Origin: an uncultured bacterium
GTDB lineage: Bacteria; CAIJMQ01
Assembly (NCBI GenBank): GCA_964573245.1
Contig: CAZNJA010000030.1
Location: 1 to 16,221, forward strand
DNA length: 16,221 nt
Direction: 5' to 3'
Part shown: positions 5,144 to 15,556 of the stretch, piece by piece
How positions within the stretch are numbered: the first letter of the stretch is position 1
Layout of the letters: each line of letters begins with the position of its first letter
Notes under the pieces: model-generated
Seen by the model: the letters and a program-made list of their open reading frames with translations, nothing else
Database searches by the model: none
What the model was told of the DNA's origin: nothing
Made by a program: the position numbers and the translations under genes

Positions 5144-5170
5144 CCTGCCCGCCGTCGCTTTAGTGGCGGG
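5144..5170. repeat. CCTGCCCGCC-N11-GGCGGG palindromic element overlapping the mnmG stop
   Basis: cctgcccgcc gtcgctttagt ggcggg; same arms as the elements at 165-191 and 6634-6659. Confidence 0.8.
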
Positions 5171-7058
5171 TTTTACCTTTTCTTAGATACACCATCAAAA
5201 CGGCAATTGCAACGGGCGTAATACCCGATATCCTGCTTGCCTGCCCGAGATTTACGGGTTTAAACTGTGCAAGTTTTTCTTTCACTTCAAAAGAAAGTCC
5301 TTCAATATCTTTGTAATTTAAACCGGACGGAATCTTTATTTTTTCCAGATTTTTAAAACTCTTTATCTCAGCTCTCTGCCTCTTGATATACCCTTCATAC
5401 TTAACCTCAATCTCTATTTCACGCAAAACATCGCTCGGATAATCGGGAAGTTCTGATTTTATATTCTGTATTTTTGTGTGCGGCCTCTTGATAAACTGAT
5501 AAAGTTTTAATTTCTCACCATTAATAACAGTACTTTGTTTCTTCAGTTCTTCTATCCCCTCTTTAATCTTCTTCTGTTTCTCTTTCGTTTCTTCAAATGT
5601 CTTCTTATCAACCAACCCGACCCGGAATCCTATTTTTCTAAACCGCAGGTCAGCATTATCTTCTCTTAAAATAAGCCGGTATTCCACGCGCGAAGTAAAC
5701 ATCCGATACGGCTCGTTAGTCCCCTTTGTTATCAAATCATCGAGCAAAACACCGATATAACTTGTCGAGCGGTCCAAAACTAGTGGCGGTCTTCCTTTTA
5801 CTTTCAAAGATGCATTAATCCCCGCAATAAGCCCCTGCGCGCCTGCTTCTTCATATCCCGTAGTCCCGTTAATCTGTCCCGCCAGATACAAATTTTTAAC
5901 TAACTTTGTCTCAAGTGTGGGAAAAAGTTGCATTGAATCAACAATGTCATATTCTATTCCGTAACCGAACCGGTTAATCTTAACCTTTTCAAGTCCCGGC
6001 ACGGAATGAATAAATTTCTCCTGCATGTCCTCAGCCATATTAGTAAAAAACCCGTTAGGATAATATTCATCCGTATCCGTCCCCTCCGGCTCCAAAAATA
6101 TCTGATGGCGCGGATGCTGGGGGAACCTGATTATTTTTTCCTCGATAGACGGACAATACCGCACGCTTGGCCCGTCAATCTTTCCGCCGAATAAGGCCGA
6201 TGATTTCAAATTATCGCTGATAATCCTGTGCGTCTTCTTGGTAGTGTAAGTAAGGTAGCAAGGCATCTGCTTAAGATTAAGCTTTTCCGTAGAAAGAGAA
6301 AACGGAACAGGCGGTTTATCCCCGTCCTGAACCTGCATCCTTGAAAAATTAATTGTCTTTCCGTCCAGCCGCGCGCTTGTGCAGGTGCTGAACCGCAGAA
6401 GTTTAAAGCCCGCCTTTTTTAAAGATTTGGATAGTCCGCCCGTGGTTTGGGGCTCCTCAACCCTTCCGCCGGGTGAGCTTTTCATACCCGTGTGCATTAA
6501 TCCGTTCAAGAATGTGCCTGGTGTCATTACAACTGTCTTGGCCTGTATTTCTCCCTTGTTGGTTTTAATACCTTTTACAATATTATTCTTTATTATTAGT
6601 CCCGTAACTTCCGCTTCAAGTATTTCCAGGTTCCCTGCCCGCCGATTAGTAGTGGCGGGTTTTTGTTTCCCTATAACCTTCTGCATATAAAGGGAATATT
6701 TTTCTCTGTCCACCTGCGCTCTGGAACTCCAAACAGCAGGACCTTTTGAAGTATTTAATATTTTAAAATGTATGCCTGTGGCGTCGGTTGCTTTGCCCAT
6801 CTCACCGCCAAGCGCGTCAATTTCCTTAACGAGTTGTCCTTTGCCTATTCCGCCCACCGCAGGATTGCACGACAAAAGTGCGATTTTGTCCTTGTTGTAT
6901 GTAACAAGAAGCGTTTTGCATCCCATCCGAGCAGATGCCAGCGCCGCTTCGCATCCCGCGTGACCAGCGCCGATGACGATGACGTCGTAAGTCCGTTCCG
7001 ATGTAATATCGGAACGAGATCTCGCCATTTTGGGAATGGCGGATTTTCTATTTTTCAT
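5160..7058 (-). CDS. mnmG: tRNA uridine-5-carboxymethylaminomethyl(34) synthesis enzyme MnmG/GidA
   Basis: [75 protein letters not shown] prefer start 7058 (MKNRK) over 7097 because it aligns with the start and upstream motif of the duplicate at 11963. Confidence 0.97.
   Translation of the reverse strand: MKNRKSAIPKMARSRSDITSERTYDVIVIGAGHAGCEAALASARMGCKTLLVTYNKDKIALLSCNPAVGGIGKGQLVKEIDALGGEMGKATDATGIHFKILNTSKGPAVWSSRAQVDREKYSLYMQKVIGKQKPATTNRRAGNLEILEAEVTGLIIKNNIVKGIKTNKGEIQAKTVVMTPGTFLNGLMHTGMKSSPGGRVEEPQTTGGLSKSLKKAGFKLLRFSTCTSARLDGKTINFSRMQVQDGDKPPVPFSLSTEKLNLKQMPCYLTYTTKKTHRIISDNLKSSALFGGKIDGPSVRYCPSIEEKIIRFPQHPRHQIFLEPEGTDTDEYYPNGFFTNMAEDMQEKFIHSVPGLEKVKINRFGYGIEYDIVDSMQLFPTLETKLVKNLYLAGQINGTTGYEEAGAQGLIAGINASLKVKGRPPLVLDRSTSYIGVLLDDLITKGTNEPYRMFTSRVEYRLILREDNADLRFRKIGFRVGLVDKKTFEETKEKQKKIKEGIEELKKQSTVINGEKLKLYQFIKRPHTKIQNIKSELPDYPSDVLREIEIEVKYEGYIKRQRAEIKSFKNLEKIKIPSGLNYKDIEGLSFEVKEKLAQFKPVNLGQASRISGITPVAIAVLMVYLRKGKTRH
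6634..6659. repeat. CCTGCCCGCC-N10-GGCGGG element inserted in frame within mnmG
   Basis: cctgcccgcc gattagtagt ggcggg encodes ...PATTNRRAG... between KQ and NLEILE, where MnmG usually has a shorter linker. Confidence 0.75.
6990..7043. repeat. Two stacked hairpins forming a 54-bp in-frame insert at the mnmG N-terminus
   Basis: cgttccgat-gtaat-atcggaacg (6994-7016) and cgccatt-ttggg-aatggcg (7023-7041); both absent from the duplicate mnmG 5' end. Confidence 0.8.
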
Positions 7059-7166
7059 AGGGAGTATTTTATCATTATTGAGGTAAGCTGTCCGCATAGT
7101 TCGTTCAAGAAACTAACGGTGTTCTCCCCCTACATTTCTTCGAAATGAAACAGGGGGACAGGGGTG

Positions 7167-7240: not shown

Positions 7241-7261
7241 GGGGTATTTTAGCATTTTCGG
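7241..7261 (-). repeat. 21-bp direct repeat containing an extended -10 (TGcTAAAAT), copy 1
   Basis: ggggtattttagcattttcgg, identical to 11965-11985. Confidence 0.85.
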
Positions 7262-7492
7262 AAAGGGTAACGGTAACGAAGCCCGTATCGGTTAGTTGAA
7301 AAACAATGAGGACTGTATGATAATCAAACCTATTCTGGAAAGGATAGAGTGGAAGAAATTTTGATGTTAGGTTTTTGATAATGTACAAAAGATGTGGAAT
7401 AATAACAATCTTATGGTACAGTGAAAAATATTTTTGGAAAAGGAATTCTCTCAAAGTAGGACAATTTAAATTTTTTTGTACTTAGATAAAAA

Positions 7493-8098
7493 ATGATAGG
7501 GATTATCAGTCTTGTTTTAGGATTAATAGGTGCAATTTCCGCACTGTGGTATTTTTGGGAAAAACTGGTTCCCATGCGAAGATTAGGCTGGAAGTTTGCT
7601 GAAAAAGCTGCAAAGAGAATGGCAGGAGAAATGATTGCAGATAATTTTTCTCCTACTTTAATTGTTGGGATTGGTCGAGGGGGAGCAATTATCGGTGCCT
7701 TAATCTCGGGCTGTCTTGGTCATCGTCCCTTGATTGTCATAGATAGAGAATATACATGGGAAGGGGGGGATAGGTGTGATGATATGATTTTTGCCGTAGA
7801 TATACCCCAAAAATTTCTAACGAGGGTATTGCTTGTATCTGGAGAAGTTCACAGTGGAAACACAATGAAGTTCTATTGTGAATACTTCAAAAAACTTGGT
7901 GCTAAATCTGTCCGAAGAGCAACTTTCTTTTATGAAAAAGGAGCAACCGCAACAATTCATTATAAGGGATTACAATCGGCAAAAAAGCACATACTGATGC
8001 CTTGGATGTGTACAAAACAATATATGAGAGCTGATAGATGCCAACCAAGAAATACACCGATAGAAGATCCTCAACATTTCACTGAAGACGATAAATAG
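7493..8098 (+). CDS. N-terminal TM helix + type I phosphoribosyltransferase-like domain (Gpt-like), degenerate PRPP loop
   Basis: Hydrophobic residues 1-22; IVGIGRGGAIIGALIS; RVLLVSGEVHSGNTM (canonical VLxVDDxxDTGxT); C-terminal ILMPW. Confidence 0.8.
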   Translation: MIGIISLVLGLIGAISALWYFWEKLVPMRRLGWKFAEKAAKRMAGEMIADNFSPTLIVGIGRGGAIIGALISGCLGHRPLIVIDREYTWEGGDRCDDMIFAVDIPQKFLTRVLLVSGEVHSGNTMKFYCEYFKKLGAKSVRRATFFYEKGATATIHYKGLQSAKKHILMPWMCTKQYMRADRCQPRNTPIEDPQHFTEDDK

Positions 8099-8102
8099 AA
8101 GG

Positions 8103-9215
8103 ATGAATGTCAAAAGCGAAGAGCCCTTGATAGAAGACTTTATTTCCTTTAAGTTAATTTTCAATCTTACACAATCTCTACGATGCAGGAATGAAGCCGT
8201 TTGGGATGATGAGTATGGAACTACCTTGATAAGTATGGGGGAAAATATTGCCTTTTCGCTTTTACAAAATTGGGGCAAAGATTCTATAAATTATGCTGTA
8301 GTTCTTTCTCCAATAATTGAAGGGCAGGTGGCAGTCCCCCCTAATCGTAGACTTGCCAGCAGTTTTCGAGAAGATTTAGATTGTGTCCTCTCAATCGGTG
8401 GAGCTCAAGAGCATAATATCGCTAAAGAGTTTCTATTAAACACAAAATCAGGGAAACAACAGCAACTCGTAACTGCACCTGTTCCCTTGAGTAATGATTC
8501 ATTTGGAACCAATAGAAGTTCTCCCTCCTTTAAGAAAGTTGAAATACCCTCAAGAGAAAGTTTATACCCATCTAGAATTTTAATAGACTTTGCCCTTTTT
8601 GAAGATGTTGATGATATCTTGCATTTGCGAGGTGTGGGAGAAGCCATCGGACTATATTATTCATTGTGGGATTACTATTCTATAAGAAAGTCCTCTCCAC
8701 CTGAAAGTTTAATAGATGATGTTGAAAAGAGCATTTCTGGCCTGATATATTCTATAAAAGATAAGAAGACTATTTGGACGAGACTCCTAGCTCTCAATCT
8801 TATAGAAAAATGTCTAGTTATGAGAGTAGCGGGAGATAACCAAATTGGTGCAGGAGGGGATCATCTCATTGCGTATGCTTTAGAATGCTATTGTGGAAAC
8901 GGTAAAGATGATAATTGCAGAAAACTTTCTCATGGAAAACTTGTATATTTAGGCTCTGTAGCTATGGCAGCTCTCTTTCCAGAGTGGAAATACAGTTTTT
9001 TTTCCCTAGAAAATCTGATAGATTTTGGGATGGAAATGAATATTTTGGAGCACAGAGACTTAAATCTATTAGTAGATATATCAACGAATGGATTGATACC
9101 ATTGGCTCTCCGAATGCGACCCTATCGTCTAACTTCTCTCTCTACCCTTTCCTCAAATAGAATAAAAAACGGTTGGATTAGGATAAATAAGTATTTAAGA
9201 GGGATTTTAAATTGA
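8103..9215 (+). CDS. Divergent glycerol-1-phosphate dehydrogenase (EgsA/AraM)-like protein, Fe-ADH/DHQS superfamily
   Basis: SIGGAQEHNIAK (cf. GGGxxIDxAK), PVPLSNDSFGT (cf. PTxxSHDGxxS), PSRILID, GVGEAI, GAGGDHLIAYALE (cf. SGSEHxxSHALD), HGKLVYLG (cf. HGEQVGLG). Confidence 0.75.
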   Translation: MNVKSEEPLIEDFISFKLIFNLTQSLRCRNEAVWDDEYGTTLISMGENIAFSLLQNWGKDSINYAVVLSPIIEGQVAVPPNRRLASSFREDLDCVLSIGGAQEHNIAKEFLLNTKSGKQQQLVTAPVPLSNDSFGTNRSSPSFKKVEIPSRESLYPSRILIDFALFEDVDDILHLRGVGEAIGLYYSLWDYYSIRKSSPPESLIDDVEKSISGLIYSIKDKKTIWTRLLALNLIEKCLVMRVAGDNQIGAGGDHLIAYALECYCGNGKDDNCRKLSHGKLVYLGSVAMAALFPEWKYSFFSLENLIDFGMEMNILEHRDLNLLVDISTNGLIPLALRMRPYRLTSLSTLSSNRIKNGWIRINKYLRGILN

Positions 9216-10291
9216 TGAACAATAAAAGTGTATTCCAATATAAAATTATAGACAATCGTAAATTGCTTAAAGAAATTGTAGAGAAACAAAGCGAAGAACT
9301 AAACAGAGGATTAGCTTTTATAATTTCACAAACTGATGAAAAAGTTGTTACTCTATCAGGTGAATGGGAAGGGTGGGTTACTACTACTGTTCGTGGAAAT
9401 AACGTTTATGTTTATGTTGATGATAGGTTTTTTAGTGATGGTTGTATTCTTGAACAAATTTTAACCTCTCTTTGGACAAACTTGTTAGATTTTGGTGAAA
9501 TTCGGTTGGAAGAGTTTAAACTGTCAGATGAGCTCCATAGTCTTCTAATTCCGGATAACCTTAATAAACCGTCTATTCAAGAATTGCTGCGAATAAATGG
9601 TCCTTACTTTGGGACAGTGTTTAAACCATCATTTGCCCTTTCCCTCTTTGAGAAGATAAATATTGCACAAAAATTTGCGAGCAAGGGGGGATTTTTCTTA
9701 AAGGAGGATGAAACTTATCTCATAGAAAAATCCAAATTATTGAAGGAGTCAGAATCTATCCAAAGGGCAATGAATACAGTCTCAGATCATTGTCTTTATG
9801 TTCCCAATGTTACATCTCACATTTTAGACGACCACCTTTATCAAGAACTCCGCGAAATTGGTATTAAGATAGTAATGGTGAACTATTTGATAACTGGATT
9901 TCCGACTGTTTATAAAGTACTAAAAAGAAATAAGGACATGTTGTTTTGGGGACATCGGGTAGGTTATAAATCCATAGAAAGATACATCTCGATGAAAGCA
10001 GTGGCTCTCTTGGCCATTTATAGTGGTATGAGTGTAATTCATATAGGGCATCCTTTCTTTTCTGCAGATAATAGTATTAAGGAACGCTTAAGTATTTTAA
10101 GAGCTATGGATGAAGTAAATCCAGATGTAATACCAGTGTTTACGAAATCTTCTTCTCAGGGAGTTCCTAATCTATTAAGATTGTTTGGTAAAAATATAAT
10201 TATTATGGCTTGTGGTTCTATAAGGACAAATGGATATTTAGACTGGGGAAAAATTGAAAAATGGATAAAGCAGGATAAAGTTAAAAAATGA
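9215..10291 (+). CDS. Highly divergent RuBisCO-like protein (form IV-like TIM barrel)
   Basis: GTVFKP, FLKEDE, LYVPNVT, VMVNYLITGF, GHR, IHIG and PVF occur in RuBisCO order. ATG at 9215 overlaps the upstream TGA (TGATG). Confidence 0.8.
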   Translation: MNNKSVFQYKIIDNRKLLKEIVEKQSEELNRGLAFIISQTDEKVVTLSGEWEGWVTTTVRGNNVYVYVDDRFFSDGCILEQILTSLWTNLLDFGEIRLEEFKLSDELHSLLIPDNLNKPSIQELLRINGPYFGTVFKPSFALSLFEKINIAQKFASKGGFFLKEDETYLIEKSKLLKESESIQRAMNTVSDHCLYVPNVTSHILDDHLYQELREIGIKIVMVNYLITGFPTVYKVLKRNKDMLFWGHRVGYKSIERYISMKAVALLAIYSGMSVIHIGHPFFSADNSIKERLSILRAMDEVNPDVIPVFTKSSSQGVPNLLRLFGKNIIIMACGSIRTNGYLDWGKIEKWIKQDKVKK

Positions 10292-10334
10292 TAAAATCAC
10301 AAAAGTTTTCTTCCACGTAATTAGGAGGTAAGAA

Positions 10335-10985
10335 ATGATAGCAGGAACTATAGCTAGTATCATAGGTGGAATTATTTTAATGGTGTTAGGTATACTTTTA
10401 AAAGTGCGTTGGTGGAGTTTAATAAAGAGGAAGATATTATTAGGGCTTACTGATAACAATCTAACAGGTATTTGTGAATATAATATCGCAAAGGAGAAAA
10501 TGGAAAGGCTTCTGAGCGACCCCAAAGTTATAAAATGGACACAGCCAGCACTGAAAATAATGTGTGTTAAGGGGAAAGACATAACGGGAGAACTGGAGAG
10601 AGGGATTAAAACTTTCCTGCGGAATGGTGGAGCAGCGTCAGTTTTACTCCTTGATCCAAATTCAAAATATACCGAGAAAAGAGCAAGGGAACTGGGTAGA
10701 GAAGACATAGATAAATTCCGAGCAAGTATCCGAAGACGTATCGATAGTATCAAGGATGAATATCACGAATGGTATTCTTCACTAGGAACACTGTGTATAA
10801 ATACATATGATTCTCCATATACATTTAGAATGAATTTTATTGATGAAACTCTATTCTTAGGATTTTACAGAGAAAAGTTGCCAGATTATGAGAATGTTTG
10901 GTATGAAATTCCGAGCCATTCGGAGTTATATAAAATATTGGTAAAATTATTTGATGAAATTCGAAGTGAGGAAGAAAGTGTGTAA
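10335..10985 (+). CDS. N-terminal TM helix + DUF5919-like domain protein
   Basis: AGGAGG RBS at 10323-10328; hydrophobic residues 1-23; VLLLDPNS...RARE and YDSPYTFRMNFIDETLFLGFY match my recollection of the DUF5919 (degenerate PLD-like fold) pattern. Confidence 0.6.
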   Translation: MIAGTIASIIGGIILMVLGILLKVRWWSLIKRKILLGLTDNNLTGICEYNIAKEKMERLLSDPKVIKWTQPALKIMCVKGKDITGELERGIKTFLRNGGAASVLLLDPNSKYTEKRARELGREDIDKFRASIRRRIDSIKDEYHEWYSSLGTLCINTYDSPYTFRMNFIDETLFLGFYREKLPDYENVWYEIPSHSELYKILVKLFDEIRSEEESV

Positions 10986-11643
10986 AACAGAAAAACATCC
11001 TTCCAATAAGATAATTGTTATAGGGGGAGGGTCTTTTCAGGGAAAATCGTTAATAGCTTCCCATGTTTCATGTAAATTAAAAATTCCACTTATAATTTAT
11101 ACGGATGTGATAAGGAATGTTTTACATGTTCTTAATCCTAAAAAACCTTATTTTTTTACATCTACGTATCTAATGTCCCCAAAGAATTTAGAAAGACAGA
11201 AGAAAGAAGTCTCCAATGTACTACAGGGAGTATTGTCTTTATGTGAAAAGAGAGGGGAGCATATTATTGTAGAGGGGATGCACTTATCCCAAGAGTTCAT
11301 TAATTATCTTTCTAATAAACATAACGTTCTACTCTTTTGTATTGATAACAAATTGTCTCTAGAAAAACGGCTGGAATATAAATCCATAACAAGACATAGA
11401 GTAAAGTACATTGATCCCGAAGCAAAAAACATTAAATATGGCGAGTTAACAACAAGTAATATATATTTTACACCATACATGGAACATGCTAACCGTATTG
11501 AAGAAATTCATCGAGAAATAGTTAGTTATTTTTTGCAAAGGCATTTACTTGTAATAGGGTTCGAAAATATCAGCAAAGGATTAAAGAAAATAGACGCAAT
11601 AGTAAATAATTGGTGGATGAATAAGGACGGAAATAGAAACTAA
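10978..11643 (+). CDS. P-loop kinase, 2-phosphoglycerate-kinase-like
   Basis: IIVIGGGSFQGKS Walker A, TDVIR, FTSTY, IIVEGMHL as in archaeal 2-PG kinases. GTG at 10978 has a GAGGAAG RBS and overlaps the upstream stop (ORF track begins at 10951). Confidence 0.8.
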   Translation: MCKTEKHPSNKIIVIGGGSFQGKSLIASHVSCKLKIPLIIYTDVIRNVLHVLNPKKPYFFTSTYLMSPKNLERQKKEVSNVLQGVLSLCEKRGEHIIVEGMHLSQEFINYLSNKHNVLLFCIDNKLSLEKRLEYKSITRHRVKYIDPEAKNIKYGELTTSNIYFTPYMEHANRIEEIHREIVSYFLQRHLLVIGFENISKGLKKIDAIVNNWWMNKDGNRN

Positions 11644-11675: not shown

Positions 11676-11963
11676 TCATTCCCTTACTCTTTCATCACAT
11701 CCTTCACTATAACCACAATACTCACACTTCCACTTCGCCAAATCCTTTGGTTGCTTTAGCAAATATGATTTCTTATCTACCTCTTTAACGAGCTGCCCTT
11801 TTCCTATTCCGCCCACAGCAGGATTGCACGACAAAAGTGCGATTTTGTCCTTGTTGTATGTAACAAGAAGCGTTTTGCATCCCATCCGCGCGGAAGCCAG
11901 CGCCGCTTCGCATCCCGCGTGACCAGCGCCGACGATTATTACGTCATATTTTTTGTTAGGCAT
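11676..11963 (-). pseudogene. mnmG: Truncated duplicate of the mnmG 5' end (~63 codons) fused to an unrelated Cys-rich tail
   Basis: [21 protein letters not shown]...GQLVKEVD is nearly identical to the intact gene. 71-bp (11818-11888 = 6859-6929) and 37-bp (11896-11932 = 6937-6973) blocks are identical at DNA level. Confidence 0.9.
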
Positions 11964-11964
11964 A

Positions 11965-11985
11965 GGGGTATTTTAGCATTTTCGG
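11965..11985 (-). promoter_or_regulatory. Extended -10 directly before the ATG of the mnmG fragment; 21-bp direct repeat copy 2
   Basis: Minus strand TGcTAAAAT-acccct-ATG, with no Shine-Dalgarno. Confidence 0.6.
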
Positions 11986-12052: not shown

Positions 12053-12080
12053 TTGACATTACTTTCTGAAGGCGTATAAT
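12053..12080 (+). promoter_or_regulatory. Consensus sigma70 promoter
   Basis: TTGACA (12053-12058), 16-bp spacer, TATAAT (12075-12080). Confidence 0.7.
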
Positions 12081-12261: not shown

Positions 12262-12627
12262 ATGAAAATGTCATTTGAAAGATTTACAAAGGCAGGAAAG
12301 ACGTTTCAGCCGAAAGTTTCGATTAGAAAGGGTGGGCAGATGGGTTTTAATAATGGATCAAGAAGAAAGTTTAAATTGGATGATTATGAATATGTAATAT
12401 TATACTTTGATAAGGAAAATAGTAAGGTTGGTATACAATTGACAAATGACGATAATGAGAATGGCATAATAAAATTATACAAAAGAGAATTAGATGTAGC
12501 TGTATCTGCAAAGTCTTTTTTGGATTATTACGAGATAAGTTGCGATAAGACCGTTGTATATGATCCTCAATGGGTTGAAGAACAAAAGATGATTATTTTA
12601 GATTTGAAAAATATAGAGGAGCGATAA
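12262..12627 (+). CDS. Hypothetical protein, beta-rich, possibly AbrB-like DNA-binding fold
   Basis: 121 aa, AAGGAG RBS (start may be 12268). PKVSIRKGGQMGFN...VILYFD pattern resembles swapped-hairpin proteins; the fold is an inference. Confidence 0.7.
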   Translation: MKMSFERFTKAGKTFQPKVSIRKGGQMGFNNGSRRKFKLDDYEYVILYFDKENSKVGIQLTNDDNENGIIKLYKRELDVAVSAKSFLDYYEISCDKTVVYDPQWVEEQKMIILDLKNIEER

Positions 12628-12635
12628 ATTGAGAT

Positions 12636-12670
12636 AAAAAAAGAAAATGCTACGGCGCGAACCGTAGCAT
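12636..12670 (-). terminator. Intrinsic terminator (minus-strand polarity)
   Basis: atgctacgg-cgcgaa-ccgtagcat 9-bp perfect stem (12647-12670), with an A-rich run on its left. Confidence 0.75.
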
Positions 12671-12717
12671 AGGGAAAAATAAAGAGTTGACACGGCATGT
12701 ATCTAACTCAATCCCTT
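12636..12717 (-). ncRNA. Putative ~80-nt antisense small RNA
   Basis: Minus-strand promoter TTGCAT (12751-12746)-17 bp-TACAAT (12728-12723), an internal hairpin, then a terminator. No ORF. Confidence 0.5.
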
Positions 12718-12847
12718 TTTTTATTGTATCTCAAAGATTGGTTAAATGCAAGAGATTGTTGAAAGGAGGTTAGCATGAGTGGATTTACTTAGATATCGTA
12801 TGTAAAAGGTTTATTGTCTATAAAAATTCAAAATGGAGGAACAAGAA

Positions 12848-13138
12848 ATGTCAGAATTTGTAGTTAGTGAAGTGGTAGATGGTGACACTTTTAAAGTTAG
12901 AGAAGGTTGGAATTGGGATGGCAAGAATGGAGAAATTGTTCGTCCTGCTGGATACAACACTCCAGAAAAGGGAGAACCGGGATACGAGGAAGCAAAACTG
13001 AAACTTTCGAATCTAATTCTGAATGAGAAGATAGAAATCCAAAATGTCCAGACCATAGATGATTGGGGCAGATTGATAGCGGATGTTTCTTATAACGGCA
13101 AAAATCTTGCTGACTATTTCCCCGAGTATAAAAAATGA
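12848..13138 (+). CDS. Short thermonuclease (SNase-like) family protein
   Basis: VSEVVDGDTF, VRPAGYNTPE, GYEEAK, DDWGRLIADV. GGAGGA RBS at 12835-12840 favours the 12848 start. No signal peptide. Confidence 0.85.
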   Translation: MSEFVVSEVVDGDTFKVREGWNWDGKNGEIVRPAGYNTPEKGEPGYEEAKLKLSNLILNEKIEIQNVQTIDDWGRLIADVSYNGKNLADYFPEYKK

Positions 13139-13177
13139 AGATTTGATTCTATATTATAAAAAAGGAGGTGAATTGGA

Positions 13178-13492
13178 ATGGCTGAATGGTCAGAGAGATA
13201 TTTATATACCGAGAGTAATGTAGATAAATATGCTCCAGAAAGTGGAGGTGTATATAGACTTATCTATGCAAGCGAGAATAAGTACTATGTATTTTATGTA
13301 GGACAGAGTGATAACCTACATGATAGGCTTAAAGCGCATCTTGCCCCATCAGAACCTAATGAGTGTATAAAAAAATATTTACATAATTATACATGCTATT
13401 TTAGGTTCATTAAAATTAGTTCGCAAACAGAGAGGGATAAAGTTGAAAAAGAGGAGATAGAAAAGTTCAACCCTGTGTGCAACAGTAAATAG
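13178..13492 (+). CDS. Standalone GIY-YIG nuclease family protein
   Basis: GVYRL...YVGQS.NL..RL..H...E...N motifs; AGGAGGTG RBS. Confidence 0.85.
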   Translation: MAEWSERYLYTESNVDKYAPESGGVYRLIYASENKYYVFYVGQSDNLHDRLKAHLAPSEPNECIKKYLHNYTCYFRFIKISSQTERDKVEKEEIEKFNPVCNSK

Positions 13493-13499
13493 GCCTAAA

Positions 13500-13537
13500 A
13501 AATAGAAAGAGCGGTTTTAAAACCGCTCTTTCTATTT
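13500..13537. terminator. 38-bp perfect palindrome, likely bidirectional terminator
   Basis: aaatagaaagagcggtttt|aaaaccgctctttctattt, directly after the GIY-YIG stop. Confidence 0.8.
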
Positions 13538-13602
13538 AATACATAATATAATTGTTAAGATTTTCTTAACGTTTCCCCGTCGCCCTTAATTTGAAAACTC
13601 AG

Positions 13603-13631
13603 TTGCCAATTCACAGTTGGGGGAATATAAT
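13603..13631 (+). promoter_or_regulatory. Putative sigma70 promoter
   Basis: TTGCCA-17 bp-TATAAT upstream of the 13690 gene. Confidence 0.6.
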
Positions 13632-13689
13632 GAGATTTAATATGAAAACGAAAAATTTCCGTATAATCAATAGTTAGTCTGAGGAAAAA

Positions 13690-14415
13690 ATGAATACAGA
13701 TAAATCTGTAGTAAAAAAAACAGAAACTGCTATTGATGACTTTTTTGACCTTTGGAAACGAAGAAAAGTAGTTTGTATTTTTGTAATTATTATAATTATC
13801 CTTCCTGTATGTTGGGTTTTTTTAAAACAATTTGTGATAATTAAAGATAAAAATGATCAAATAAATAATTTAATAGATAGTAATGCAGGGCTTCAAAGCG
13901 CTTTAAAGGAATTGCAAAAAGTTTGGGAAATTAAAGAAGAGACTCTATTAAAGAAAGAGTTTTTATATACTAGAACTAATGAATTCCCCATTTCCTCAGA
14001 TTATTTTTTGCCTGGGGAATTAAATATAGATAGCTTAACAAGTTACAATTCGCCTAATATATTAAATGTAGATAACTTAATAAGTTCTTTTCCCCCTTAT
14101 TTTCATTATTCTAATGAGATTAAGGAAGAAGAATTTCAAGACCCAGTGACAGGTGCTATGTTAAAAGTTACAGAGATTAAATCAGATAATACTGCAAATA
14201 TTGCACTTTATTTTCCAAGTCTTCTAGAACCAAAAATAGATTATATTAAAAATGTATCTTCAGGAAAATCATGGGAGTTTAATTATTTAGGAAAAAAATA
14301 CGAAATAACAATTTTAGATATTAATTCGACTAAAAGTAGTTTTAGAGTGAGTATACAGGAGTTAACAAGCTCTGATATAGAAGATGTATTAGATTTGATT
14401 TTGATTAATAAATAG
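13690..14415 (+). CDS. Hypothetical single-pass membrane protein with coiled coil
   Basis: 241 aa, GAGGA RBS; basic patch KRRK, then hydrophobic VVCIFVIIIIILPVCWVFL, followed by a heptad-like segment. Confidence 0.75.
   Translation: MNTDKSVVKKTETAIDDFFDLWKRRKVVCIFVIIIIILPVCWVFLKQFVIIKDKNDQINNLIDSNAGLQSALKELQKVWEIKEETLLKKEFLYTRTNEFPISSDYFLPGELNIDSLTSYNSPNILNVDNLISSFPPYFHYSNEIKEEEFQDPVTGAMLKVTEIKSDNTANIALYFPSLLEPKIDYIKNVSSGKSWEFNYLGKKYEITILDINSTKSSFRVSIQELTSSDIEDVLDLILINK

Positions 14416-14626: not shown

Positions 14627-15556
<930 letters not shown>

Follow-up and report, generated by a model that had tools for sequence, protein, structure and literature searches.

The operon at positions 7493-11643 (forward strand) of a 16,221-bp stretch of DNA from an uncultured bacterium is, as judged by comparative sequence analysis, one copy of a rare and horizontally mobile enzyme cassette built around a RuBisCO-like protein (RLP). 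The stretch, below called the window, is the whole of one contig (C30) in an assembly of 1.46 Mb and 110 contigs that is 93% complete. The operon consists of five open reading frames (ORFs), designated here genes A to E, which encode a membrane-anchored phosphoribosyltransferase (PRTase)-like protein, a divergent member of a family comprising sn-glycerol-1-phosphate dehydrogenase (G1PDH) and glycerol dehydrogenase, the RLP, a membrane-anchored DUF5919-like protein and a P-loop small-molecule kinase resembling 2-phosphoglycerate kinase (2-PGK). The same ordered set was found in metagenomic loci with unrelated flanks, in several of them beside anti-phage genes. A role in conflict with phages is tentatively favoured, and it is ranked above plain salvage of nucleotides.

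Layout, recurrence and mobility of the cassette

The five ORFs are intact, co-oriented and tightly coupled, as established from the ORF listing and by direct reading. Gene A (7493-8098; 201 aa), with an N-terminal transmembrane helix and an archaeal-type purine-PRTase-like domain, is separated by 4 nt from gene B (8103-9215; 370 aa), the stop codon of which (TGA, 9213-9215) overlaps the ATG of gene C (9215-9217) in the sequence TGATG. The ORF of gene C, coding for a compact protein of the RuBisCO-large-subunit fold, opens at TTG 9212 and ends at 10291 (359 aa); its start is most likely the preferred ATG at 9215 (358 aa). The following gap of 43 nt contains an AGGAGG ribosome-binding site (10322-10327), 7 nt ahead of the ATG of gene D (10335-10985; 216 aa), which combines an N-terminal transmembrane helix with the DUF5919-like domain. 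The ORF of gene E opens at TTG 10951 (230 aa) and ends at 11643, and a GTG at 10978 (221 aa) overlaps the stop of gene D. Upstream of gene A there are two sigma-70-like promoter matches (7296-7403, forward strand), each with 10 of 12 positions; these are weak pattern matches, from a scan in which 30 such sites were found and 20.7 were expected in shuffles. Scans of the window for tRNA genes and Rfam families gave no match.

The gene set is kept in 18 other loci, found by a scan of metagenome contigs for the RLP, which shows that the five-gene run is no chance array of ORFs. Across these loci the order is the membrane-anchored PRTase, with or without a His-phosphatase domain, the G1PDH-family dehydrogenase, the short RLP, the membrane-anchored DUF5919-like protein where present, and the 2-PGK-like kinase, together a compact unit of 2.5-4.8 kb. 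The components were counted by tblastn with the window proteins and by ORF clustering on the 18 loci, only where the sequence is present. The kinase follows the RLP in all 15 loci with sequence at that position, and the dehydrogenase precedes it in 15 of 17, the exceptions being L003 and L004, which pass straight from PRTase to RLP. Ten loci extend 1 kb or more upstream; six of these have the PRTase and seven a His_Phos_1 domain (fused in four, standalone in three). The core is formed by the RLP and the kinase, usually together with the dehydrogenase, and the PRTase and the gene D protein are variable members. Flanking ORF families are common to different loci in two cases only: L016 and L017, which represent one and the same locus, and L006 and L007, which have a HAD gene in common.

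That the cassette moves as a unit is indicated by L003 and L004, in which a near-identical three-gene version (PRTase-RLP-kinase, without the dehydrogenase; L003 2099-4633, L004 5181-7724) lies in otherwise unrelated contigs. The identity is 96.4% over 2,544 nt, exactly these three genes, and nothing similar was found outside; a weaker similarity continues leftwards from the shared stretch for about 80 nt, and no convincing terminal repeats were seen at the cassette ends. The RLP family is very small, with 47 proteins, including that of the window, among 5.8 billion. One of its clusters at 90% identity has members named from a Micrarchaeia and a Sulfolobaceae metagenome-assembled genome (MAG), and so both bacteria and archaea have members of the family. 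In 185,579 species-representative genomes, scanned for motifs with the RLP profile, there was no relative, and profiles of the RLP, dehydrogenase, kinase and PRTase revealed no copy in 2.9 million viral contigs. By tblastn there was no match in 50,697 phage records, and plasmids gave only distant RLP/RuBisCO matches (23-25% identity).

Within the host phylum, represented by nine species representatives in the genome set used, the RLP is present in one genome only (G000). It was not found in three same-genus genomes (81-96% complete) in which the carB-carA-mnmG synteny is kept, and a search of 40 relatives gave a single weak match (E-value 3e-7), an ordinary 442-aa ORF of the RuBisCO family. 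By CarA, the nearest public relatives of the host are MAGs labelled Candidatus Omnitrophota and Ca. Ratteibacteria. That some 4.8 kb were inserted upstream of mnmG is indicated by the duplicated 5' end of this gene, by the atypical composition and by the lack of the cassette in congeners. On either side of the operon lies one copy of a 167-nt direct repeat of mnmG 5' sequence (6823-6989 and 11782-11948, both reverse strand; 92% identical). The left copy is part of the full-length mnmG (5160-7097), at its 5' end, and it is to this copy that relatives align. A 21-nt motif of native mnmG upstream sequence is likewise present twice in identical form (7241-7261 and 11965-11985), and 7241-7282 matches the region directly upstream of mnmG in a same-genus genome (G002) at 93%. 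The truncated second copy of the mnmG 5' end (11676-11963, reverse strand) gives a 95-aa ORF whose first ~63 aa are MnmG and whose rest is unrelated. The GC content of the module is 35.2% compared with 38.4% for the genome, which is the 4.8th percentile among 1,082 equal-size windows, and its tetranucleotide distance from the genome falls in the top 3.4%. The relatives that retain carB-carA-mnmG have nothing in common with the window beyond the mnmG start. There is no integrase or transposase in the 16,221 bp. The operon stretch occurs in several salt-marsh DNA sequencing runs, and among the assembled contigs of such runs none shows an empty insertion site.

A sequence-only reading of the window had described five intact, co-oriented ORFs with the junctions given above, AT-richer than car and mnmG and bracketed by duplicated mnmG sequence. 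The ORFs, with their coordinates and overlaps, and the duplication were verified, and the module is also AT-richer than the genome. Its inference of horizontal acquisition is supported, L003 and L004, with one cassette in unrelated contexts, adding to this point. It had also asked whether at least three of the five genes co-occur elsewhere, and they do so, in order, in the 18 loci. Its view of the five genes as one unit needs qualification: the ordered set recurs, but the PRTase and the gene D protein are variable, and the window copy is without the His-phosphatase domain of other loci.

Predicted functions of the encoded proteins

The product of gene C is a member of the RuBisCO large-subunit superfamily, with an N-domain and a TIM-barrel fold. 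It passes PF00016 (36.3 bits, cut-off 30.1), and its AlphaFold (AF2) model (pLDDT 90.7) has as top structural matches the archaeal type III RuBisCOs 2d69, 2cwx and 8dht (TM-score 0.82-0.84, 17-19% identity), with the characterised RLPs 3fk4, 3nwr, 2oej and 2zvi ranking close behind; archaeal type III RuBisCOs are the closest by both profile and fold. The alignment of 29 family sequences contains 25 invariant columns, among them K137-P138, K163-E164-D165-E166, H247-R248 and H276. In the profile alignment these residues coincide with the KPK, KDDE, HR and H(I/S)G motifs of solved RuBisCOs, and we take them to be the equivalents of K175, K201, D203, E204, H294, R295 and H327 in spinach numbering. 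The residues of the Mg/carbamate site and of enolisation are retained. The second lysine of KPK (K177 equivalent) is not conserved, the motif reading KP-[Y/x], and the stretch between the equivalents of H327 and S379 (spinach numbering) is ~18 residues shorter and has no invariant lysine, which leaves the protein without loop-6 K334. Since the loop-6 lysine equivalent is absent, gene C is not taken for a carboxylase, and it is read as a probably active RLP of the enolase/isomerase type, predicted to be non-carboxylating. Both phosphate sites seem to keep some of their residues (R248, H276; T310-K311), a hint that the substrate may be a bisphosphate. Two narrower assignments were considered and rejected. 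A bona fide RuBisCO carboxylase of forms I-III is ruled out by the missing K177 and loop-6 K334 and by the score against type III RuBisCO TIGR03326 (46 bits, cut-off 497), and the MtnW/YkrW 2,3-diketo-5-methylthiopentyl-1-phosphate enolase by 21 bits against a cut-off of 409 (NF007095) and by the lack of mtn genes in the cassette. The RLP is the only RuBisCO-family gene of the host genome. Among its language-model neighbours in the Protein Atlas there is a 333-aa “RuBisCO catalytic domain” cluster, 52% viral (Uroviricota) among recorded members, which may be a separate group of short viral RLPs, given that motif scans of viral contigs gave no relative of the cassette family.

Gene B alone has no Pfam match and only a weak NCBIfam match to G1PDH (NF002022, E-value 2e-5); its 23.6 bits against a cut-off of 413 mean that it is not an sn-glycerol-1-phosphate dehydrogenase at the equivalog level. 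The family profile built from 11 sequences matches glycerol dehydrogenase 3ce9 (E-value 2.9e-20) and the G1PDH structures 5fb3 (3.3e-19), 4rgq and 9h4x. D132, H254 and H277, which are putative metal ligands, do not vary among the 11 sequences and align to the SNDGF, EHL and HG motifs of 3ce9 and 5fb3. By these profile matches, gene B is assigned to the G1PDH/glycerol dehydrogenase (dehydroquinate synthase-like) superfamily, and it is read as a Zn/NAD(P) dehydrogenase. For gene E, the nearest family is 2-PGK (NF003259, E-value 3e-16), and its 59.9 bits against a cut-off of 343 mark it as a family-level relative only. Its Walker A motif, GGGSFQGKS, is invariant, as are several other residues, and the kinase profile gave only a generic P-loop match in the PDB (E-value 5e-4).

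The gene D protein begins with a transmembrane helix (Kyte-Doolittle 19-residue maximum of 2.55 at residue 6). By itself it has no family match in the libraries scanned, and DUF5919 (PF19319) does not match it at E-values up to 1; a Protein Atlas cluster containing DUF5919 scores 0.89 for it. Exhaustive HMMER searching identified 954 cluster representatives as relatives at E-values up to 1e-3, where a word-based search gave only 2. Of the 87 relatives scanned, 20 match DUF5919 (best E-value 7e-10). P-loop kinases (AAA_18, AAA_33, AAA_28) co-occur in these proteins, and further domains found in them are Guanylate_cyc (3), TIR_2 (2), HD (2), Radical_SAM (2), TIR (1) and ThsB_TIR (1), as well as PNP_UDP_1, Metallophos, CYTH, NACHT, nSTAND and Nuc_deoxyrib_tr. 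The model (pLDDT 74.8) shows a fold like that of phospholipase D (PLD) without the catalytic HKD motif, and its structural matches are the TrmBL2/TrmB effector domain, the FAM83 pseudo-PLD, NucT and PLD/PSS proteins (E-value 4e-6 to 1e-3, TM-score ~0.45-0.52). In other loci the protein occurs as a separate gene in L002 (62% identity) and, by a profile made from close homologues only, as a separate ORF in L011 (E-value 8e-15) and, fused to the kinase of L014, as the N-terminal half of that protein (1e-16). A complex prediction for its soluble domain with the kinase (score 0.01, mark 0.32) is evidence neither way.

Gene A passes the type I PRTase family PF00156 (31.3 bits, gathering cut-off 26.3), and its N-terminal transmembrane helix is indicated by a Kyte-Doolittle 19-residue maximum of 2.3 at residue 1; such anchors are present in the PRTases of all six related loci and of the window. 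The family profile (6 sequences) matches the Pyrococcus purine PRTase 1vdm (E-value 6.6e-14) and also Sulfolobus GpT-1 and GpT-2. The loop that would bind 5-phosphoribosyl 1-pyrophosphate (PRPP) is altered in gene A, where it reads VLLVSGEVHSGNT. The loop of 1vdm, VDDVSDTGKT, corresponds to V[AS]GE-x-HSG-x-T in the family, so that the neighbouring pair of acidic residues expected ahead of the T/S-G-x-T motif is replaced. Because E118 and H120 are invariant in the six sequences although the acidic pair is gone, the loop is considered remodelled and conserved, not decayed. The window copy of gene A has no His-phosphatase domain. His_Phos_1 is fused to the PRTase in L002, L005, L007 and L009 (E-value 1e-47 to 1e-50), standalone in L011, L016 and L017, and absent from L003, L004, L006 and the window. 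The fusion of membrane-anchored PRTase and His-phosphatase also forms a family which, with ~60 proteins (390-450 aa), exceeds that of the RLP in size. Seven of the fusion proteins lie on contigs equal in length to contigs with RLP matches. Some members lie on long contigs (for example one of 436,827 nt, named from an Eisenbacteria MAG) that are not among the RLP matches, and the fusion may work outside the cassette too.

The fold calls of the sequence-only reading were checked in this way: A passes PF00156 and C PF00016, E is a family-level match to NF003259, B is placed by its family profile, and for D the label “DUF5919-like” is borne out only at the family level, through relatives. The hydropathy maxima back its two membrane-anchored members. 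Its statement that the active sites are degenerate did not hold in general, as the catalytic or ligand residues are invariant in the RLP, in the dehydrogenase and in the kinase; the one replacement concerns the acidic pair in the PRPP loop of the PRTase.

Several accessory genes of the loci bear on the substrate of these enzymes, through NCBIfam assignments that are all below the equivalog cut-offs (CobC, ribulose-1,5-bisphosphate (RuBP) 5-phosphatase, ribose-1-phosphate (R1P) kinase and type III RuBisCO). The His-phosphatase domains score 101-143 bits as CobC (alpha-ribazole phosphatase), which ranks top in two of four and second in two of four. In L006, a HAD protein encoded 157 nt after the kinase has RuBP 5-phosphatase as its top-ranked family (202 bits), and in the double HAD protein of L007 the same family comes second (178 bits) to the generic HAD family TIGR02253 (194 bits). 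The PfkB protein that adjoins the kinase in L009 ranks highest as ADP-dependent R1P kinase (281 bits). The 431-aa protein of L011 (442-1737), two genes upstream of the cassette, ranks highest as type III RuBisCO (295 bits, cut-off 497); it is a full-length type III-like RuBisCO with N and C domains, so that this locus holds two RuBisCO-family genes. According to one report, the haloarchaeal non-carboxylating pentose bisphosphate pathway uses an R1P kinase, a ribose-1,5-bisphosphate (R15P) isomerase, a HAD RuBP phosphatase, a ribulose-1-phosphate aldolase and a glycolaldehyde reductase, the last being a protein annotated as sn-glycerol-1-phosphate dehydrogenase (PMC9700705). Taken with the accessory scores, this pathway gives pentose-bisphosphate counterparts to three of the module's folds or recurrent neighbours. 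The fusions and neighbours point to probable chemistry on nucleotide-derived pentose (bis)phosphates, and the PRTase-phosphatase fusion ties such predicted pentose chemistry to a phosphoribosyl-base compound.

As the sequence-only reading had supposed, the cassette does not map fully onto a characterised pathway. None of the cassettes was seen to contain an R15P isomerase, a nucleoside/AMP phosphorylase or an aldolase, although no genome-wide phosphorylase search was made in the host. The only IF-2B-family protein of the host scores 441 bits as MtnA (above the cut-off) and 214 bits as R15P isomerase (below it). This MtnA-type methylthioribose-1-phosphate isomerase is encoded on contig C47 (1075-2058), apart from the cassette contig. 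The product of MtnA belongs to the substrate class of some known RLPs.

Genomic neighbourhoods and the insertion site

The neighbours of the cassette were scanned with Pfam and PADLOC for selected ORFs, ~40 of the 187 called. In L002, the cassette lies between genes for a HerA-like protein (1.6e-22) and DruA (4e-82) on one side and TmtA (2e-198) on the other, and in L005 between HamB (2e-178) and the type I restriction-modification genes for HsdM, HsdS and HsdR. A PDC-S39/DUF4209 gene (3e-43) follows the cassette in L003. The cassette and its HAD gene are followed by a retron-type reverse transcriptase (3.5e-84) in L006, and by a prokaryotic Argonaute (5e-83) and a type IIG restriction-modification-like protein (9e-34) in L007. 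Weaker cases are a SIR2_2-TPR protein in L015 and, directly upstream of the cassette in L016/L017, a 349-aa protein with SLOG/Nuc_deoxyrib_tr similarity and a PADLOC “Effector TIR” match (1e-9). Counted over the independent contexts with flanks, five of nine have strong defence genes, two have weak ones (L015, L016/L017) and two have none (L004 and the window). The co-location with defence genes that the sequence-only reading had proposed to look for was seen in most long loci, for selected neighbours and with no background rate. The five operon proteins gave nothing useful in a PHROGs scan.

The earlier pointer to a conflict role from nearby nucleases in the window was not sustained. These are part of an AT-rich run of small ORFs (12262-14415; GC 27-34%), which encode a 121-aa protein, a protein similar to staphylococcal nuclease (SNase; PHROG endonuclease match, 5e-10), a GIY-YIG protein (Pfam 3e-6; PADLOC PDC-S14 5e-6) and a 241-aa transmembrane protein. 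None of the small ORFs is common to relatives or to the 18 cassette loci, and the SNase-like and GIY-YIG ORFs, with no counterpart in any of the 18, were rejected as members of the system. A perfect sigma-70 consensus (TTGACA, 16 nt, TATAAT) stands ahead of this run at 12053-12080. A perfect 19+19-nt palindrome without spacer directly follows the GIY-YIG ORF (13500-13537) and is likely a terminator or a recombination site. Further on, a 309-aa ORF (14627-15556) with a signal-peptide-like N-terminus lies in a stretch richer in GC (43-53%) than its surroundings.

Some further features were observed around the insertion site. In sequencing run X1, a contig of 1,328 nt connects 11895 with 6937, in register through the repeat and with a period of 4,959 nt; the join fits a circular or tandem island or, equally, a de Bruijn artefact (37-nt shared word, depth ~5), and it was not used as evidence. 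The full-length mnmG has an N-terminal extension (6990-7097) compared with the duplicated fragment and with the same-genus genome G001. The extension also occurs in the same-genus genome G003, the match running as far as 7074. The mnmG gene may in fact begin at an internal Met (MKNRKS...) and not at 7097, as suggested by a CAT with a copy of the upstream motif after it at 7055-7081. In a variant of run X4, 6980-7065 is replaced by 32 other letters. The 56 nt at 7102-7157 are 84% identical to sequence ~44 nt beyond the tRNA-Cys gene of G001 (L029 8349-8404; tRNA-Cys 8448-8522), and loose ends in runs X1 and X4 have tRNA-like sequence joined at 7102. This segment looks like a possible remnant of a rearranged tRNA-Cys flank beside the insertion.

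Possible roles and comparison with known systems

From gene content, conservation, mobility, fold and residue conservation, and neighbourhoods, all of which are observed, we infer a substrate, an order of steps and a biological role. It is proposed that the cassette acts on a nucleotide- or PRPP-derived pentose phosphate. The PRTase-like domain would form or cleave the C1-N bond in a 5-phosphoribosyl compound, and the phosphatase, whether fused or encoded nearby, would take off one phosphate, after which the kinase would phosphorylate, or rephosphorylate, the product to a bisphosphate. The RLP might then enolise or isomerise the ketose (bis)phosphate at its intact Mg-carbamate site without addition of CO2, the dehydrogenase might reduce or oxidise the resulting carbonyl, and the DUF5919 domain might sense a small ligand at the membrane and gate the kinase. 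As to the purpose of such a pathway, our leading, still tentative candidate is an anti-phage role, in which the cassette would either drain nucleotides into a pentose-bisphosphate-type sink or produce a sugar-modified nucleotide or signal. This role is favoured because the cassette lies among anti-phage genes and because DUF5919 relatives are fused to TIR, cyclase, HD, PNP and STAND domains. A specific form of it, which we hold to be improbable, is a chemical defence that makes a deoxy- or keto-pentose nucleotide as a chain terminator or alarm signal. The kinase would phosphorylate a pentose hydroxyl, the RLP would enolise the ketose bisphosphate and eliminate phosphate, the G1PDH-family reductase would fix the product, and the atypical PRTase, in which the acidic pair that binds the ribose diol is replaced, would couple the altered sugar to a base under the control of the membrane DUF5919 sensor. 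Were this so, it would be the first immune role for a RuBisCO fold.

A number of observations weigh against an anti-phage pathway of this kind. None of the five operon proteins matches any of the 5,027 models of PADLOC-DB v2.0.0 at E-values up to 1, there is no recognisable effector (nuclease, pore or NADase) among the core members, and defence systems do not usually comprise a pathway of four conserved enzymes. The count of five in nine contexts has no background rate, and mobile cargo of any kind tends to enter such islands. In L004 the four nearest neighbours were scanned and gave no defence match; in L009 a sugar kinase and an IS200 transposase flank the cassette, in L016/L017 ABC permeases do, and the window has housekeeping genes on one side and the small, unconserved SNase-like and GIY-YIG ORFs on the other. 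The chemistry itself is also open to objection, since the accessory-gene assignments are all below their NCBIfam cut-offs and the PRTase, with the PRPP-loop acidic pair missing, may bind its ligand rather than catalyse. The gene D protein is absent from six of the ten loci with a separate, unfused kinase ORF, and the extension of the L016 kinase, which aligns with that of L014, is not significantly similar to gene D by the independent profile.

Much of the same evidence can be read without phages, and the neighbours related to pentose-bisphosphate metabolism provide a concrete metabolic alternative that the sequence-only reading had not considered. The cassette might be an accessory salvage or catabolic unit, a non-carboxylating variant, bacterial or DPANN in style, of the pentose bisphosphate pathway for nucleoside/nucleotide ribose that feeds the ribose of scavenged nucleotides into central metabolism. 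The PRTase would free the base by pyrophosphorolysis to PRPP, the phosphatase and kinase would determine how the sugar is phosphorylated (R15P or RuBP), the RLP would isomerise the ketose phosphate, and the G1PDH-like enzyme would reduce a C2/C3 product, an aldehyde or a ketone. The best accessory families (RuBP 5-phosphatase, R1P kinase, type III RuBisCO) fit this possibility, as does the RLP's nearness to archaeal type III RuBisCOs by profile and fold, and in L016/L017 the upstream genes are ABC permeases and a nucleoside 2-deoxyribosyltransferase/SLOG-like protein. Two reports add the G1PDH-annotated glycolaldehyde reductase of haloarchaea (PMC9700705) and a nucleoside-RuBisCO salvage described in the type of organism to which the host, a small-genome (1.46 Mb) uncultivated bacterium, belongs (PMC5113843). 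However, the cassettes are without the R15P isomerase, phosphorylase and aldolase and the IF-2B protein of the host is MtnA-type; the RLP family is extremely rare (47 in 5.8 billion) and patchy; strong defence genes flank five of nine contexts; and two members are membrane-anchored, one of them with DUF5919 relatives fused to TIR, cyclase and STAND domains. Salvage is considered possible, but less likely than the anti-phage role.

Two other explanations are ranked well below it. The anchors, present on the PRTases of the six related loci and the window, could be taken to place the pathway at the inner membrane face for biosynthesis of a membrane-associated or envelope compound or a compatible solute, for example a phosphoribosyl or ribitol-/glycerol-phosphate head group, by analogy with polyprenyl-phosphoribose pathways. 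A G1PDH-family enzyme and a 2-PGK-family kinase are at hand, and the logic of PRTase, phosphatase and oxidoreductase resembles decaprenyl-phosphoribose processing. Yet in the loci examined neither a glycosyl-, prenyl- or CDP-alcohol transferase nor a flippase turned up, each anchor is one helix attached to a domain that is otherwise soluble, and the defence neighbourhoods and mobility would be left without explanation; this biosynthetic role is given little credence. Least probable is a counter-defence or pool-repair module, carried on a mobile element, that would regenerate nucleotides or NAD metabolites depleted by neighbouring TIR/SIR2-type systems. SIR2- and TIR-like genes do adjoin the cassette in L015 and L016, and chemistry of the PRTase and kinase kind is used by phages in NAD reconstitution, but the PRTase is purine-type and not Nampt-like, and no copy was found in the 2.9 million viral contigs (four profiles), the 50,697 phage records or plasmids.

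If the favoured anti-phage role is right, the RuBisCO and G1PDH folds join the immune repertoire, and the cassette represents a new, categorically distinct small-molecule route in bacterial and archaeal immunity. If the role is metabolic, it is an unseen mobile branch of non-carboxylating pentose-bisphosphate metabolism with a new deep RLP clade, which bears on the diversification of the RuBisCO family. Either way, the cassette gives the first functional context for the DUF5919 domain family (954 cluster representatives). Each fold is already known, and the chemistry resembles that of pentose-bisphosphate pathways; what seems to be undescribed is the RLP clade and the way its genes are combined, together with the membrane anchors, the tie to DUF5919 and the apparent setting in defence islands. 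The literature search returned no description of an RLP-G1PDH cluster, of DUF5919, of a RuBisCO/PRTase defence island or of an RLP in phage defence, with supplements and ~1.7 million PMC articles lying outside it.

Among the closest known systems are defence-linked small-molecule pathways such as prokaryotic viperins with their nucleotide kinases and the Ter-linked PRTase/HAD module for a “nucleoside-like metabolite”. They share with the cassette metabolic-type PRTase, phosphatase and kinase genes in conflict-associated loci and predicted nucleotide-derived products, but the cassette has no radical-SAM viperin, ATP-grasp, TerD or TerY protein. No RuBisCO-fold or G1PDH-fold enzyme was found as a part of such a system in the searched literature. 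The gene D model shares the PLD-like fold of the C-terminal, effector-binding domain of TrmB/TrmBL2; it differs in that a transmembrane anchor replaces the helix-turn-helix, it is linked or fused to a kinase and it falls below the Pfam model of DUF5919. With the characterised RLPs (MtnW/YkrW, the Rhodospirillum rubrum 5-methylthioribulose-1-phosphate isomerase and the OiaX-type apiose proteins) the cassette RLP has in common the fold, the Mg/carbamate site and the lack of a carboxylation loop, and this likeness suggests an enolase/isomerase-type reaction on a ketose phosphate. The cassette RLP is ~50-70 residues shorter and its operon partners are different, with no MtnA, MtnK or MtnX and no four-carbon acid kinases. 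The archaeal pentose bisphosphate pathways are also among the closest systems. In Thermococcales this route consists of AMP phosphorylase, R15P isomerase and type III RuBisCO. In both the archaeal pathways and the cassette there is a G1PDH-family oxidoreductase, the RuBisCO-fold enzyme of the cassette is closest to type III, its accessory HAD and PfkB proteins score best as RuBP 5-phosphatase and R1P kinase, and the start would be a nucleotide or nucleoside (in the cassette through the PRTase, or the LOG/SLOG-like protein in L016). Unlike those pathways, the cassette has no R15P isomerase, phosphorylase or aldolase and an RLP without K177 and the loop-6 lysine; its kinase is a P-loop, 2-PGK-like enzyme and not PfkB; and it is a mobile unit, found beside defence genes in several loci, with two membrane-anchored members, one of them a DUF5919 protein.

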